NCBI GenBank assembly: GCA_003213515.1
Contig: QCMV01000001.1
Location: forward strand, 60,272 to 124,271
Source of the DNA: Pelagibacteraceae bacterium AG-422-N09
GTDB taxonomy: Bacteria > Pseudomonadota > Alphaproteobacteria > Pelagibacterales > AG-422-B15
Length of the DNA stretch: 64,000 nt
Direction of reading: 5' to 3'
This document shows, one piece after another, positions 4,701 to 6,762 of this stretch; positions within the stretch are counted from its first letter, which is position 1, and each line of letters opens with the position of its first letter. The position numbers and the translations under genes are program-made. The notes below the pieces were generated by a model. That model had not been told where the DNA came from. It worked only from the letters and a program-made list of their open reading frames with translations, and searched no databases.

Positions 4701-5228
4701 CTTTCCATAATATCGGGCAGGACAAATAATTGTTGATGGAACTAATAATCCAATCACTTTCTTATTGATTTTTATTAATCCATATTCATTCCAATTTTGA
4801 CTGTTAATTAATTTTTTACTTGGCGTAATCGCTGACAATACTTCTGCAAAATTTCCAGATTGCAGCGTCTCTCCCTTTGTCTTGTATGGATCAGAACTTA
4901 AGTTGTTTAAGTTTATGACTTCTGTTTCAATAGTTTGTTTATGATACGGCATTAATGCAAACAAGGCCAACAAACCTCTCCACTCACTTTTGATTTGGTT
5001 ATGTAGTGGATGGCGCTCATCATACAAGGCATTCGCGACCACTGCTGTTCTTGCCCATACATCAGGTACTGAGACTAATTCTTCTGAGTCTTGCTCAAGT
5101 TTAGCTGATTTAAGACCATTTGATATTCTGGCTAATATGGAATTAGTTTCCTCAGTCCACTCACCTTCAATTGATATTTCTGGGACTTGATGGTCATCAT
5201 TTAAAGGTGGTAACAAATTTTTAGTCAT
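1773..5228 (-). CDS. 1151-aa protein with C-terminal actin/Hsp70-superfamily ATPase domain and large unknown N-terminal region
   Basis: Phosphate-1 IGIDFGTTNT, FFSYPEAF, connect-1-like SESLSSALYF, phosphate-2 ITIDIGGHTSDIS, adenosine motif CLGGRAS. Confidence 0.8.
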   Translation of the reverse strand: MTKNLLPPLNDDHQVPEISIEGEWTEETNSILARISNGLKSAKLEQDSEELVSVPDVWARTAVVANALYDERHPLHNQIKSEWRGLLALFALMPYHKQTIETEVINLNNLSSDPYKTKGETLQSGNFAEVLSAITPSKKLINSQNWNEYGLIKINKKVIGLLVPSTIICPARYYGKSIDNSIPWFQVGKLIDPCLAADIRSEEFSVLINFIEQFEQGLAKESMSNQEYFDGILGALTSFKNDAEKRIRESGQAKINLHGFKRVNTSFKLPNQPGYSMLSNISEFDAGGTHAFDTFMKMRDGISDYKGAILVDEEMPNVIAKQASDIRVWDTYSLDKLSKNKTLRKDVEKEINKEKMLYITPEDIFTKSLCLLPQGDDKIIEHESYLENEYLYPLNPIILCFVTPENLRSRFEIKQAQNTYQVSLRIDIQDHLGEKKEYVLRKEYLEEEVINKFNQPTACSVWPNFSHPSWDRYYLYLASNLQSSISVNHTFSLQSLNNLIDQQETDKKKLDTFSRLSGKNLKFSKKLELGGESTVINELHIMQDPPEAIVCDAVLEKDVRYYVPADQRSIVGLIMLPKIKKAVVTNDRYKIGIDFGTTNTCAYIRKNDEEAKDITLSDRIFSPFEKSSLDEFYIRTLREFIPQRSVDVPFMTISRDRRIGLNQGDVSYPIPIWTAFIYFVNDMRDGLEDIEDPNDRELHFNLKWSKSPEDRQRIEIYLGQVVQQAYAEALAQGANIEQIEWFFSYPEAFTPDQLRSFKLLFKSSVEKGVDPFNVQESPNQIGFKSESLSSALYFASNKDAAFTDTAITIDIGGHTSDISIWQSRELKWRNSTQIAGRHILINFLCENIELIKHLSISDPVLQDAYAQLESIKNKGDKIEVRNAVEIIVNSKEFADAYANRFHIVDGQNEGMNLRTTAEIALAGILFYTGQIISDLNSKKIFDKNRTGTTTVCLGGRASLLYKVIFNDEEDQRALKDFLADASGGSLKSDQIKFSFTENPKHEVSHGLLVEEIGTTNLDLSKQSHTLILGEEIDCGGNTVKATSSIEELNIDEEWRILNLNNVRVFADKLKNNAGYVMDITRQLENKIVGNINGELVDTQERLLQSKKDGFDPFSEEYRGESTYVEPPFIVALRDLLERIVNKEVNVTSKRR

Positions 5229-6762
5229 TTACACTCTTTCTATCAACAGCGCTACAACTGTCATACAGTTCACCAAAAAATACTCCAAGACCAGATCTAT
5301 TTTTTACTTTGGTCGGATAATTTAATTTTGTAAATATTTTTGAAAGCGCTGGAAAATTTCCACTTTGAATTAAGTCGCTAAAGTTTGCTATTTGTTGCTT
5401 AGATAATTCATCATGCAGAATAACGTCGCCAAACTTATTGGTAACATCGAGTGAAGAAAATTGCTCACAATTGATAAGAGATATTTTTTCATTTTCAGAA
5501 CCTTTACTGTTGAAAATAAGAGAAGAAACCCATTCTAAAAAATCATCAAAAAAAAGTTTAATTTTTTCAATTTCATACTGAATTTCATCATCTGCCAAGT
5601 TAACATCTTCTTTATTAATTAATAAGTCAAACCAACTCTCATTTTGTATCGTCTCCCATTTAGTAGTTAAAAAAGGATAATAGACATCACGAAAAGCTAG
5701 TGACATAGTTGTAAATTGACCTATTAAATTTCTGACATCAGCCTTACTTTCTGTAACCGCAGGCAAATCCTGCCATGTAAAATTTAATTTATTATTTCTT
5801 GAAATATGAAATACTTTTTGACCAGAAATATCTTTTTCAAAAAATCTTGAAGCAGCAAGACAAGCATAGATCTCTGGTATAAGGGGAGGATTTTTTTGAT
5901 TGTTTCCTCCTTTTTCGAAGTACTTTAAAGGAATAAGTGGATCAGCTCCAGCAAGATACAGTTCGTCAAAAATTTTCTCCCCACTTCCCTCAAACATTCT
6001 TGAATAATAATCTAGCGCTCCTCTTGATTGCTCCAGAAAAGTATCCGCGTGTGCGACTTGTTTTTCTTCGTCTAAATCAGGTTTAGGAAAACTGAAATAG
6101 GGTAACATTAACGCTCCACCAATTTTTACACCATCCGTTATATTTTTTTTCTTAATTATCTCCCTTAATAACCTAGCGATAGATGGAAAGCCAGATGCTC
6201 CAGTGCCTCCAAATATTGAACTTACTAAAAATATTTTAATTTCTTTTCCTGAATTTGCCTCATCCAGGGCATCAAATAATTTTTGCCAAAAAGGAGTATT
6301 TTCGTTCATTTGAGAAATGATTGCGGCTGCTCCGATGCTTGGTCGAGCCCTGAATCCTTCATCAAGTGGTAGATTTAATTCATCTTCAGTGTGATACAGA
6401 CAGTCCATTGTATCTTTCAAAGCAGGATTTAGAAGATCGTATGAAAATACATCTTTTAAAGTTGGTGTCACACCGGGTAGTGGGCACCATGAAGCGTCCT
6501 CAGGATGAGTTCTTATATCTGTTTTTAAAAAATTAGTATTAAAGCCGATATTATCTTTACCCTCCCTTTTAATAAAATTTCTTAATCTTTGATAGTTTTC
6601 AATAGCAGTTTTTGATCTTGCAACGTTTCCATTTGCTTCATCTTGATCTACCATTCCTAGCCATAAATTTGATGGACCGAGACCAGTTGCACAAAGCTTT
6701 ATATAACTTTCAATTACCTTACTTCCCGTCCCACCTACACCAATTAAATAGCATTCACTCAT
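5221..6762 (-). CDS. Divergent tubulin/FtsZ-superfamily GTPase (Tubulin_2/FtsZ-like), not the division FtsZ
   Basis: YLIGVGGTGSK, VDQD, DEGFRARPSIG, signature SSIFGGTGASGFP, LPYFSF. Start moved from 6777 to ATG 6762, which forms an ATGA overlap with the upstream stop. Confidence 0.85.
   Translation of the reverse strand: MSECYLIGVGGTGSKVIESYIKLCATGLGPSNLWLGMVDQDEANGNVARSKTAIENYQRLRNFIKREGKDNIGFNTNFLKTDIRTHPEDASWCPLPGVTPTLKDVFSYDLLNPALKDTMDCLYHTEDELNLPLDEGFRARPSIGAAAIISQMNENTPFWQKLFDALDEANSGKEIKIFLVSSIFGGTGASGFPSIARLLREIIKKKNITDGVKIGGALMLPYFSFPKPDLDEEKQVAHADTFLEQSRGALDYYSRMFEGSGEKIFDELYLAGADPLIPLKYFEKGGNNQKNPPLIPEIYACLAASRFFEKDISGQKVFHISRNNKLNFTWQDLPAVTESKADVRNLIGQFTTMSLAFRDVYYPFLTTKWETIQNESWFDLLINKEDVNLADDEIQYEIEKIKLFFDDFLEWVSSLIFNSKGSENEKISLINCEQFSSLDVTNKFGDVILHDELSKQQIANFSDLIQSGNFPALSKIFTKLNYPTKVKNRSGLGVFFGELYDSCSAVDRKSVND

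Follow-up and report, generated by a model that had tools for sequence, protein, structure and literature searches.

How might a tubulin-fold GTPase work when it lacks the loop through which its relatives activate one another? Cytomotive filament proteins come in two great families, NTPases of the tubulin fold and of the actin fold. Within filaments of FtsZ or tubulin the T7 loop activates the adjoining subunit, and to our knowledge every well-studied tubulin-fold GTPase is activated via T7 by another copy of itself. The question is raised by a gene in a 64,000-nucleotide stretch of the genome of Pelagibacteraceae bacterium AG-422-N09 (hereafter the window), which encodes an FtsZ-like protein and adjoins the gene of a large ATPase-like protein.

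The longest open reading frame of the GTPase gene runs from 5221 to 6777 (518 aa), and in the alignment the relatives begin at its sixth codon. The ATG of this codon (6762-6760) overlaps the TGA of the preceding gene (6761-6759) as ATGA. Because of this common start and the ATGA overlap, the 513-residue frame in Table 1 is correct and the bounds given by the first-pass annotation were retained; the strand had to be added, since the plus strand of the interval is stop-rich and the gene therefore lies on the minus strand.

Table 1 Features of the cassette and of its island, with positions counted from the first letter of the window
Feature	Position	Strand	Remarks
First 590 codons of a 729-aa protein	1..1770	minus	Continues past the left end of the window
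1151-aa partner protein	1773..5228	minus	Residues ~585-1015 modeled as an ASKHA ATPase fold; C-terminus helical
Tubulin/FtsZ-fold GTPase, 513 aa	5221..6762	minus	Conserved start; short-form Tubulin_2/FtsZl1 clade
186-aa membrane protein, four hydrophobic segments	6759..7319	minus	Stop overlaps GTPase start (ATGA)
465-aa putative lipoprotein	7321..8718	minus	Invariant Cys29 behind N-terminal hydrophobic segment
386-aa trypsin-like (Trypsin_2) serine protease, N-terminal hydrophobic segment	8842..10002	plus	Inside the island
146-aa protein, three hydrophobic segments	10006..10446	plus	Final island gene
Right-hand island boundary	10447..10459		Island-less metagenome contigs join the greA stop to ~10454

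The AlphaFold2 model of the GTPase (pLDDT 86.5, pTM 0.90) was compared with the PDB by Foldseek, and the matches listed were exclusively FtsZ, tubulin and CetZ (lowest E-value 5e-5). Superposition on M. tuberculosis FtsZ (6ym9_A) by VIA-align, a comparison suggested at the first pass, placed model residues 3-358 on FtsZ residues 5-302 (Z 17.6, rmsd 4.0 A, 223 aligned residues) and recovered the tubulin/FtsZ fold with helix H7. The additional helical C-terminal region that had been read from the sequence is present in the model as helices between residues 347 and 507, or about 170 aa. The GTPase is a real, very divergent tubulin/FtsZ-fold protein. It had been regarded as a lone oddity, and this view was not borne out, as the protein belongs to the FtsZ-like-1/Tubulin_2 family, which has been described before. 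Pfam Tubulin_2 (PF13809) matched it with 44.8 bits (1.3e-11; cut-off 27) over profile positions 119-211 of 356 only, while the relative at locus L031 covers positions 2-222; most homologues carry the same label in precomputed form (120 matches listed). PF00091 scored 24.8 bits, under its cut-off of 33. Within the family the GTPase falls in a short-form clade of 2284 clusters at 50% identity, with lengths of ~480-560 aa and without a coiled coil, and 149 of its 150 best relatives measure 413-565 aa.

The motifs quoted in the first-pass annotation were all located, namely IGVGGTGSK (residues 11-19, T1), SIFGGTGASG (187-196, T4) and QKNPPLIPE (294-302). The loops T1, T2 (DQDxxNGN), T3 (GFRxxPxxG), T4, T5 (LPYF) and T6/H7 (QxNPPLxPE) are invariant or nearly so, both in 26 and in 152 sequences. 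Glycines G15, G16, G18, G190, G191 and G193 are 99-100% conserved; across the 152 sequences D44 and D46 of T2 are D/E in 100%, and T3, E302 and Q294/N296 are strictly conserved. The T4 motif, FGGTGASG, has one residue more than the canonical GGGTG[ST]G. The T7 loop itself was confirmed as absent, the pattern N.D..[DE] occurring nowhere in the GTPase. None of the 152 family members has the pattern in the stretch aligned to residues 296-350, and 17 of them have it elsewhere in the sequence. The loop that follows helix H7 is short, with a median length of 9 residues, and unconserved, every residue of 315-321 being at most 30% conserved. Because T7 is missing throughout the clade, the GTPase probably does not make head-to-tail filaments of the FtsZ type that activate their own GTPase. 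The missing T7, the longer T4 and the low PF00091 score would also suit a catalytically dead nucleotide-binding scaffold, in which GTP/GDP is bound as a structural cofactor while all the work falls to the ATPase partner. We consider this quite improbable, as the conservation of D44/D46, T3, E302 and Q294/N296 appears to go beyond what a structural cofactor usually needs.

With an FtsZ fold and the motifs of T1 and T4, the protein might also be taken for a second, diverged FtsZ with a role in cell division, a reading that its distribution effectively refutes. The family profile found the gene in 1 of 60 genomes of the host's family; it was found in none of the 59 others, 13 of which are at least 90% complete. 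The division ftsZ of this genome, with a normal NLDFAD, is on the same contig at a distance of about 55 kb, and a TIGR00065 scan of the whole genome gave a single match (409.5 bits), at another place on this contig. For the GTPase the NCBIfam scan returned no ftsZ match and the Pfam scan no FtsZ_C, and the hhalign comparison made on this question aligned 39 columns, around T4 only. The gene moreover sits in an inserted island, and no dcw gene is close by, either among the island genes or in the immediate flanks (greA, cca and NUDIX), as had been stated before. The GTPase is not the division FtsZ; the first-pass annotation had allowed for a grouping with true FtsZ or a normal T7, and the protein has neither a TIGR00065 match nor the T7 motif.

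The gene that follows starts within the 3' end of the GTPase gene (ATG 5228-5226) and encodes the 1151-aa partner. VIA matched its residues 585-1015 to MreB (Z 19.4), FtsA (Z 18.6) and Hsp110 (Z 17.6), the top Foldseek matches were Hsp70, the family profile found MreB in the PDB at 8.8e-7, and MreB_Mbl gave a weak match in 16 of 24 family members. The phosphate motifs read DFGTTNT and DIGGHTSD, and D594, G596, D810, G812 and D817 are invariant. By its model this region has the actin/Hsp70 (ASKHA) fold, within which we leave Hsp70-like and actin-like undivided. The N-terminal ~580 aa had no structural match among those listed. Residues 1-62 are highly conserved, with L6, W24, P55 and W58 invariant in 1-58, and in the partner's own model residues 1-58 have a mean pLDDT of 45-71 per 10-residue block.

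The two genes are closely bound to one another. In 78 of 80 loci, drawn from many phyla, a relative of the partner is encoded on the same strand downstream of the GTPase; both misses are contig ends, and the median spacing of the ORF bounds is 4 nt. All eight long homologues (1644-1732 aa) are fusions of GTPase and partner in gene order. The pairing was also found in 9 of 10 IMG/VR loci, and the pair is present in Alphaproteobacteria, Cyanobacteria, Bacteroidota, Negativicutes, Poribacteria and others. Prediction of the complex gave an ipSAE of 0.87 versus 0.51 for the best control; the ipSAE mark was attained by 116 of 157 solved complexes and by 2 of 215 mismatched pairs, counts that are only rough here because our own alignments went into the prediction. 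At least 92% of the contacts agree among three runs, with a partner pLDDT of at least 77. The predicted interface comprises T3 (144-151), T4 (189-199), T5 (225-227), T6 (274-281) and helix H7 of the GTPase and residues 1-9, 20-33 and 51-62 of the partner; the T1 and T2 loops are absent from the interface list. No conserved partner residue could be named as a catalytic finger in the predicted complex, and the SIPDxWAR motif is predicted to make its strongest contacts with the clade-specific insert 122-127 and not with the nucleotide pocket. The first-pass annotation had proposed that a partner such as the adjacent ATPase, and not self-polymerization, may trigger hydrolysis. This proposal is supported in part, by the family-wide loss of T7, the linkage, the fusions and the predicted T3-T6 interface.

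In FtsZ and tubulin, longitudinal contacts are made through this T3-T6 face. Its coverage by the predicted partner interface, together with the absence of T7 from 152 of 152 members, counts against a self-polymerizing cytoskeletal element for membrane remodeling, which would use a non-canonical interface and have the actin-fold giant as a second filament or as an anchor to membrane proteins. Such an element seems to us unlikely, though several points speak for it: polymer-forming proteins have this fold, membrane and coiled-coil proteins abound in the cassette, the actin-fold half of the partner could itself polymerize, the ATPase domain of the partner is nearest to filament formers of the MreB, FtsA and ParM type, and membrane remodeling is a role proposed for FtsZl1 in the excerpts of that work used here (PMC2875224).

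A further argument comes from the genomic setting. The cassette is part of an island of ~14 kb that separates greA from cca, the latter beginning (with its stop-codon end) at 10460. The greA-cca spacing is 8-14 nt in four of four relatives versus ~14.0 kb here, and metagenome contigs show the greA-cca junction without the island. The family profile was found in 4 of 81 genomes in the genus of locus L009 and in 3 of 17 in that of L059, and on IMG/VR contigs the cassette adjoins a relaxase with an integrase, a resolvase or a Mu portal gene. The cassette is mobile, and its distribution is sparse. Because it is so rare an accessory island (including the single occurrence among the 60 genomes of the host's family), a housekeeping morphogenetic role fits poorly, which also weighs against the self-polymerizing element.

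Upstream of the GTPase gene, the position of the 186-aa protein is taken by a gene of ~145-210 aa in the loci mapped; tblastn with this protein found a relative in none of the 80 loci, and its sequence conservation across phyla is low. By profile, relatives of the lipoprotein were detected in 70 of the 80 loci. The conserved motifs of this family (DxTxSM..G, FG and VIVTDL) resemble those of vWA/MIDAS proteins, and a vWA search gave no Pfam match, no PDB-profile match and an Atlas VWA_2 score of only 0.76, so that the protein is putatively vWA-like by its motifs alone. The genes on the other side of the pair vary with lineage. In the 729-aa protein two hydrophobic segments, one N-terminal and one at 496-514, lie on either side of a long charged coiled-coil-like region; among the 80 loci compared, relatives of this protein were found in L001 only, and beyond the window its gene is followed by one for a PDZ-domain membrane protein of 661 aa and one for an SH3_3 protein. 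Relatives of the trypsin-like protease occur in L001-L003, which are the other three loci from marine Alphaproteobacteria, and in L037. In 17 of 80 loci the GTPase-partner pair is followed by a ZorAB-like MotA/MotB stator pair, with a MotA/ExbB-family protein of 571-711 aa that has a long helical C-terminal extension and an OmpA/MotB protein. MotA_ExbB and OmpA scored above their Pfam cut-offs in these pairs, and PADLOC matched ZorB (1e-19 to 3e-11) and ZorA (3e-13 to 6e-5) in L031, L025 and L054. Neither MotA nor OmpA was matched by Pfam or PADLOC on the 729-aa and 661-aa proteins of the window's cassette. On that cassette PADLOC gave nothing convincing (best NsnC, 0.0011), and no recognizable nuclease or toxin domain was found in it. 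Among the flanking ORFs examined, only 10 of 116, from 8 of 33 loci, matched PADLOC at 1e-10 or better, a raw count without a background rate; these matches are mostly generic helicase, ABC or kinase.

The reading that we favor, and hold to be fairly probable, is that the GTPase is a short-form FtsZ-like-1 protein which forms the partner-gated half of an obligate pair in a mobile, envelope-linked cassette. It would work as one half of this pair with the downstream 1151-aa protein, as a nucleotide switch gated by the partner and not as a polymer subunit. The conserved N-terminal ~170 residues of the partner, predicted to be disordered alone, would fold onto the T3-T6 face, H5, H7 and the conserved WxDxP motif of the GTPase. 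The pair may constitute the cytoplasmic core, to which the cassette would add the lipoprotein, the small polytopic membrane protein and an envelope module that differs between lineages. This module would be the ZorAB-like stator in the 17 loci, the coiled-coil and PDZ proteins in the window and L001, and the protease in the window and L001-L003. An envelope signal might then be passed to the GTPase-ATPase pair, and our preferred inference is that the cassette may be an envelope-linked system of surveillance or defense. The case for defense is weak, given the PADLOC results on the cassette and flanks, the lack of a recognizable ZorAB-like pair in the window's version and of any recognizable nuclease or toxin domain. 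A more specific version can be offered only tentatively, as the chances appear to lie somewhat against it: an obligate tubulin-actin hetero-NTPase switch, anchored in the envelope, in which the N-terminus of the partner caps the nucleotide face in trans, which would drive a widespread, horizontally mobile system (in some lineages with a ZorAB-like proton-driven stator) and which would sense, for example, phage attack.

If the pair does work in this manner, it would represent a new mode of regulating a tubulin-fold GTPase and would provide a function for part of the uncharacterized FtsZl1/Tubulin_2 family, a matter open since 2010. Members of the clade are found across many bacterial phyla, and abundant marine Alphaproteobacteria are among the carriers. 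The cassette would then be a new class of cytoskeletal-fold signaling or defense machine, in some cases a single polypeptide of ~1650 aa. It would also make a compact experimental system, with culturable carriers, for asking whether cytoskeletal folds have entered mobile envelope-linked conflict systems akin in logic to Zorya.

Comparison with the FtsZl1/Tubulin_2 proteins, as described in excerpts of two papers (Makarova and Koonin 2010, PMC2875224; Santana-Molina et al. 2023, PMC9871819), indicates extensive similarity. The GTPase shares with them T1 and T4 with family-specific inserts between these loops, and with FtsZl1 a T6-H7-T7 region that cannot be aligned to FtsZ, a helical C-terminus unlike FtsZ_C or Tubulin_C, a co-occurring normal FtsZ, and linkage to membrane proteins (of MotA/OmpA type in some lineages). 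FtsZl1 genes also have an operon partner of vWA type, for which the upstream lipoprotein gene is a candidate here from its motifs. The same excerpts of the FtsZl1 paper report that counterparts of T6-H7 were not identifiable and that filament formation is perhaps novel or absent (PMC2875224). They ascribe to most members an FtsZ-like N-terminus, then an extended coiled coil and finally an alpha-helical domain at the C-terminus, with lengths of 763-1208 aa in the neighborhood table, whereas the GTPase has 513 aa and, in its model, a helical bundle of ~170 aa and no long coiled coil. Because the FtsZl1 organization is stated only for 'the majority', we regard this gap as a subfamily difference and not as an exclusion. 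The FtsZl1 list includes a protein from Azospirillum sp. B510 (PMC2875224); one of the named relatives of the GTPase (P0117, 517 aa) is from Azospirillum lipoferum. The invariant neighbor of the short-form clade, an actin/Hsp70-fold protein of ~1050-1250 aa, is absent from the associated families of PMC2875224, the nearest neighbors in the excerpts being a 1626-aa COG0443 protein in one Magnetospirillum locus and a 1083-aa 'GrpE' in Chloroflexus. Those excerpts contain no mention of GTPase-partner fusions.

Two kinds of conflict system also invite comparison. The DO-GTPase/GAP1-N2 systems, in the sections of Kaur et al. 2020 used here (PMC7159879), include tubulin or HSP70 components and vWA, and are described as NTP-dependent conflict systems with possible multimeric assemblies; like the cassette they are multi-gene, membrane-proximal and sporadic. 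They are defined, however, by TRAFAC DO-GTPases with GAP1 and FNIII proteins, and no P-loop GTPase was matched here by Pfam, NCBIfam or PADLOC, the protein sets differing between libraries. Their tubulin and HSP70 themes are given in those sections as non-overlapping and as restricted to or predominant in Firmicutes/Actinobacteria (PMC7159879), while in the cassette the tubulin-fold and actin/Hsp70-fold proteins form an obligate adjacent or fused pair and occur in the wide range of groups named above. The anti-phage system Zorya, with its ZorAB stator and cytoplasmic tail, as portrayed in the parts of Hu et al. 2024 used here (PMC11946911), resembles the 17 stator-bearing loci in its MotA/ExbB and OmpA/MotB genes, detected as ZorA/ZorB by PADLOC, and resembles the cassette in coupling an envelope-anchored unit to soluble cytoplasmic components. 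The cassette differs in having no ZorC, ZorD or ZorE-type effector and weak ZorA matches (3e-13 at best), and its cytoplasmic parts consist of a GTPase of the tubulin fold and an ATPase of the actin fold, those of Zorya being DNA-binding or nuclease proteins (PMC11946911). The pair also resembles FtsZ and FtsA, a GTPase of the tubulin fold and an ATPase of the actin fold that are functionally coupled near the membrane; FtsA is the second-best structural match of the partner's ATPase domain. FtsZ contacts FtsA through its C-terminal peptide and polymerizes through T7. The GTPase, in contrast, is without T7, its predicted contact places the N-terminus of the partner on the nucleotide-loop face, and the genes of the pair are themselves accessory and do not belong to the core.

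Many stop codons interrupt the forward strand between 5221 and 6762, and the gene for the tubulin/FtsZ-fold protein (hereafter the GTPase) lies on the minus strand. Alignment places the start of all relatives at the sixth codon of its open reading frame, and this ATG (6762-6760) shares bases with the upstream gene's TGA (6761-6759), the two forming ATGA. The shared start and the overlap therefore delimit a real gene of 513 residues, with the same boundaries that the first-pass annotation had given; the motifs listed there (GVGGTG, SIFGGTGASG and QKNPPLIPE) are all present in the product. 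At its other end, the TAA (5223-5221) falls within the first codons of the gene for the 1151-residue partner protein (ATG 5228-5226). With these boundaries, the upstream membrane-protein gene, the GTPase gene and the partner gene are packed so as to allow coupled translation.

The GTPase is of the tubulin/FtsZ type. It matched the Pfam family Tubulin_2 (PF13809) at 44.8 bits, above the cut-off of 27, and PF00091 at 24.8 bits, under the cut-off of 33. A plain sequence search of PDB chains returned no match at E-values up to 10, so that the kinship is visible only through fold comparison. From 26 relatives, AlphaFold2 produced a confident model (pLDDT 86.5, pTM 0.90), and among the Foldseek matches listed for this model all were FtsZ, tubulin or CetZ (best E-value 5e-5). 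Superposition on Mycobacterium tuberculosis FtsZ with VIA-align gave a Z score of 17.6 and an rmsd of 4.0 A over 223 residues, with residues 3-358 of the model lying on FtsZ 5-302. The initial tubulin/FtsZ-like assignment was thus upheld by profile, structure search and superposition. The nucleotide loops are the protein's most conserved parts, both among 26 aligned relatives and among 152.

The pattern N.D..[DE], which describes the FtsZ T7 motif, occurs nowhere in the GTPase, and at the stretch aligned to residues 296-350 it was found in none of the 152 relatives; the loss of T7 first noticed in the single protein therefore extends to its family. Elsewhere in the sequence the pattern occurs in 17 of the 152, which is the chance level. 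The loop after helix H7 (301-314) is short (median 9 residues) and has no residue more than 30% conserved. It is followed by a strand (321-325) and then by the conserved W335-x-D337-x-P339, D337 and the bottom-face positions being placed only by alignment ranges and the succession of secondary-structure elements. The last ~170 residues are helical in the model, in keeping with the extra helical C-terminal region earlier put at roughly 200 residues. A profile alignment (hhalign) of the GTPase family with the genome's own FtsZ covered 39 columns around T4 only, at a probability of 21%, and T7 could not be placed by it. That true FtsZ is encoded elsewhere (match span 4674-5624 of the contig), scores 409.5 bits to TIGR00065 and has normal GLGAG, GGGTGTG and NLDFAD motifs. 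An NCBIfam scan of the GTPase gave no ftsZ match and the protein does not group within true FtsZ, in line with its earlier description as divergent. The true FtsZ also carries a long, very acidic C-terminal linker with near-perfect repeats, in which EPEMESEPVSEPEMIAEPEVDPEPIEE occurs twice; a repeat-bearing linker of this kind is unusual for so small and streamlined a genome.

The covered portion of PMC9871819 equates PF13809 with the FtsZ-like (FtsZl1) group, a family described in 2010 by Makarova and Koonin (PMC2875224). The covered parts of the latter paper already report that T6-H7 counterparts are unidentifiable in FtsZl1 and that its C-terminal part is unrelated to FtsZ_C; the family and its missing T6-H7/T7 are already in print. 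By the same parts, FtsZl1 members are mostly ~1000 aa long with a coiled coil (763-1208 aa in the portion of the neighbourhood table covered), whereas the GTPase characterized here is a distinct short form. The protein matches 514 database clusters (90% identity) at E-values up to 0.001. Its profile, searched against 1.84 billion representatives, matches 2284 clusters at that threshold and 1307 at E-values up to 1e-30, with a length of 413-565 aa in 149 of the best 150 of the 2284. The Azospirillum lipoferum relative carries the NCBI name 'tubulin-like domain-containing protein', and a protein of Azospirillum sp. B510 stands on the 2010 FtsZl1 list in the covered part of PMC2875224, which does not imply orthology between the two. 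In the full-text literature searched, outside which most subscription journals lie, we found neither a description of the short clade as a unit nor an account of its invariant pairing and fusion with a giant protein of actin/Hsp70 fold. The same literature, which included the supplements of PMC2875224 as far as covered, likewise contained no mention of the predicted nucleotide-face capping.

The partner is an actin/Hsp70-fold (ASKHA) ATPase. It contains the motifs DFGTTNT and DIGGHTSD, and a profile of 24 relatives matched MreB (8.8e-7), actin, FtsA and Hsp70 chains. Its model (pLDDT 83) retrieved Hsp70 nucleotide-binding domains in Foldseek, and residues 585-1015 superposed in VIA on MreB (Z 19.4), FtsA (Z 18.6) and Hsp110 (Z 17.6). 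Residues 1-580 had no structural match among the Foldseek and VIA matches listed; because the ASKHA domain fills both lists, this result is no evidence of a new fold. An assignment of the N-terminal half to SrfB (PF07520), offered by the annotation resource Atlas as a lead of 0.81 on 19% of cluster members, was unsupported, as none of the 24 family members matched and a whole-genome scan at E-values up to 1 was empty.

The genomic linkage of GTPase and partner is essentially absolute. A pattern search of one-genome-per-species contigs yielded 599 matches, 534 of which encode a GTPase relative, and 80 loci were kept. Record titles from this search name culturable carriers, among them Brevundimonas pishanensis, Sphingomonas colocasiae, Parerythrobacter lutipelagi, Rufibacter roseolus and Mitsuokella jalaludinii. 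By profile search, 78 of the 80 loci carry the partner downstream on the same strand, the ORF bounds lying a median of 4 nt apart, and the two loci without it (L016 and L045) stop at a contig edge; single-sequence tblastn recovered it in 77. All eight long homologues found (1644-1732 aa) proved by profile search to be fusions of GTPase and partner, joined in the order of the genes. In Raphidiopsis brookii D9 (L043) the GTPase frame is split into ORFs of 311 and 193 aa and the partner likewise into ORFs of 164 and 944 aa, which may reflect either a decaying cassette or sequencing errors.

Direct binding of the partner at the nucleotide face of the GTPase is predicted by complex modelling. Residues 6-513 of the GTPase and 1-490 of the partner, each with its own alignment, gave an ipSAE of 0.87 in three runs against 0.51 for the best control; among solved complexes 116 of 157 attain the pass mark, among mismatched pairs 2 of 215, counts that hold only roughly here since own alignments were supplied. 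Contacts agreed to at least 92% between runs, with a partner pLDDT of at least 77. The first ~60 partner residues include the invariant L6, W24, P55 and W58. With the partner folded alone, the pLDDT block means of this segment are only 45-71, and in the models it behaves as would be expected of a segment folding on its target. The T3-T6 face of FtsZ and tubulin forms the longitudinal contact in filaments and receives T7; capping of the nucleotide site by the partner, and possibly its regulation, would therefore be consistent with the prediction. T1 and T2 were not among the contacts of the predicted complex, and it contained no catalytic finger. The suggestion that a partner triggers hydrolysis stands in part, the predicted binding at the T3-T6 face speaking for it and the lack of a catalytic finger in the prediction against it.

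Coordinates of the features described (unprefixed positions are those of the window; residues are marked as such)
Feature	Position	Strand	Details
GTPase ORF	5221-6777	-	518 aa
GTPase gene	5221-6762	-	513 aa, from conserved ATG
Partner gene	1773-5228	-	1151 aa
T1, conserved	GTPase residues G15, G16, G18		in 26 and in 152 relatives
T2, conserved	GTPase residues D44-Q-D46..N49-G50
T3, conserved	GTPase residues G141..P146..G149
T4, conserved	GTPase residues S187, F189, G190, G191, G193
T5, conserved	GTPase residues L225-P226-Y227-F228
T6/H7 start, conserved	GTPase residues Q294, N296, E302
Predicted interface, GTPase side	residues 109-133		clade-specific insert
Predicted interface, GTPase side	residues 144-156, 189-199, 225-227, 247-263		T3/H3, T4, T5, H5
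Predicted interface, GTPase side	residues 274-281		S6/T6, plus one face of H7
Predicted interface, GTPase side	residues 320-329, 336-340		strand, WxDxP motif
Predicted interface, partner side	residues 1-9, 17-33, 51-62, parts of 103-173
186-aa protein	upstream of pair		four hydrophobic segments
465-aa lipoprotein-type protein	upstream of pair		family with invariant Cys after N-terminal hydrophobic stretch
Rest of window cassette			729-aa coiled-coil membrane protein, 661-aa PDZ membrane protein, SH3_3 protein, trypsin-like protease, small membrane protein
Trypsin-like (Trypsin_2) protease	8842-10002	+	N-terminal hydrophobic segment
Protease beside cassette	L002 13889-15127
Island	contig C1:56730-70730		L083 8459-14000 + window 1-10459
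True ftsZ	L081 799-2487	-	562 aa
Split GTPase frame	L043 9004-11017		Raphidiopsis brookii D9
HSP70 after partner	L028 14045-15625		Chitinophagaceae
HSP70 after partner	L046 14046-15608		Ignavibacteriaceae
DUF805 domains	L002 12762-13619		Pelagibacteraceae
DUF805 domains	L036 7240-9336, 9272-10789		Selenomonadaceae
Relaxase and integrase	L087 710-3865
Resolvase and methylase	L084 65-3682
Mu-type portal gene	L092 1545-2789
X19 pieces, GTPase gene	5902-6052, 6561-6823
X19 pieces, partner gene	2610-2797, 4513-4709, 4750-4900
X19 piece, protease gene	8909-9059

The cassette around the pair keeps its order and sizes across phyla (~450 / ~155 / ~500 / ~1100 aa). The family of the 465-aa protein occurs in 70 of the 80 loci, upstream on the same strand in 58, upstream on the opposite strand in 11 and elsewhere in one. 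Its motifs DxTxSM..G, FG and VIVTDL recall the vWA MIDAS site, an assignment that no library searched confirmed. Genes after the pair vary by lineage. In 17 of the 80 loci (Poribacteria, Negativicutes/Clostridia, one Bacteroidaceae and one acidobacterium) there follow a MotA/ExbB protein that bears a long helical extension and an OmpA/MotB protein, which match the PADLOC ZorA and ZorB models. A bona fide HSP70 (PF00012, 1e-82 and 1e-76 respectively, ~520 aa) stands directly after the partner in L028 and L046; an SH3_3 protein stands at the end of L028, as one does at the end of the window's island. Cyanobacteria and Caulobacterales/Sphingomonadales carry other proteins without an assigned family. 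The coiled-coil and PDZ proteins of the window recur in L001, and the trypsin-like protease recurs beside the cassette in L001, L002, L003 and L037, the protease-bearing loci being marine alphaproteobacterial loci and one Selenomonadales locus. The protease and the PDZ protein together resemble a split HtrA-like module joined to this system. Two loci carry DUF805 membrane domains downstream of the cassette, in one case fused with TPR repeats.

The family profile matches only the window's own genome (1.22 Mb, 85% complete) among 60 genomes of the bacterial family, with no match in 46 other species genomes of the genus or in 13 genomes at least 90% complete. The distance from greA to the CCA-adding enzyme gene (cca) is 8-14 nt in four relatives, one of them with flanks 97-99% identical in protein, and 14.0 kb in the window's genome, where nine genes occupy the gap as a ~14.0-kb island inserted exactly in the spacer. 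Short A-runs are present at both junctions, and no integrase, tRNA or long non-coding flank was found at the island. In marine metagenome contigs from three runs the match to the window ends at about 10454, past which they encode the GreA C-terminus (YEIKKILYK-stop) and so represent the island-less junction. Sporadic presence was also seen in the genera of L009 (Brevundimonas, 4 of 81 species genomes) and L059 (Microcystis, 3 of 17). Ten IMG/VR contigs bear the cassette, with the partner downstream in nine and the lipoprotein upstream in seven, and 26 flanking ORFs from six of these loci were scanned with Pfam. On three contigs classed as viral by IMG/VR, the cassette adjoins a MobA/VirD2 relaxase and a tyrosine integrase (L087), a serine resolvase and a DNA methylase (L084), or a Mu-type portal gene (L092, 1.2e-71); these neighbours indicate that the cassette travels on mobile elements.

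The T7-less tubulin-fold GTPase, its obligate pairing in the genome with an actin-fold ATPase, and the membrane/envelope companions and accessory, mobile status of the cassette are firm. Considering them jointly, we infer that the GTPase may be a partner-gated switch central to a surveillance or defence system linked to the envelope. Such a system would be analogous in logic to Zorya, as described in the portion of PMC11946911 covered, and its components would be related to those of the tubulin/HSP70/vWA conflict systems that Kaur et al. describe (PMC7159879). The covered portion of the latter defines those systems by DO-GTPases and GAP1, neither of which came up in Pfam, NCBIfam and PADLOC scans of island proteins. 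PADLOC and PHROGs applied to the window's own cassette gave nothing significant except NsnC (0.0011) and two PHROG cases, namely one PHROG without known function on the ATPase motif (3.9e-4) and protease PHROGs on the trypsin-like gene; no recognisable effector domain was present in that cassette either. The missing defence-model match and effector domain count against the defence reading. A PADLOC scan for defence islands, run without a background control, covered 116 ORFs, each 200 aa or longer, in the flanks of 33 of the 80 loci; ten of these ORFs, in eight loci, matched at 1e-10 or better, and MzaA (1.8e-68, L026) was the only specific-looking match. The membrane-remodelling filament proposed by Makarova and Koonin (PMC2875224, in the parts covered) is a live rival to the partner-gated switch.

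Contig depth differs between the island and cca, a difference that is suggestive only, as depth cannot rank genes. In the seawater metatranscriptome run X19, 13 contigs are 90-99% identical to the window; the short ones that match parts of the GTPase, partner and protease genes are 95-99% identical. As an RNA library may hold DNA, these contigs only hint at expression in seawater and do not prove it.
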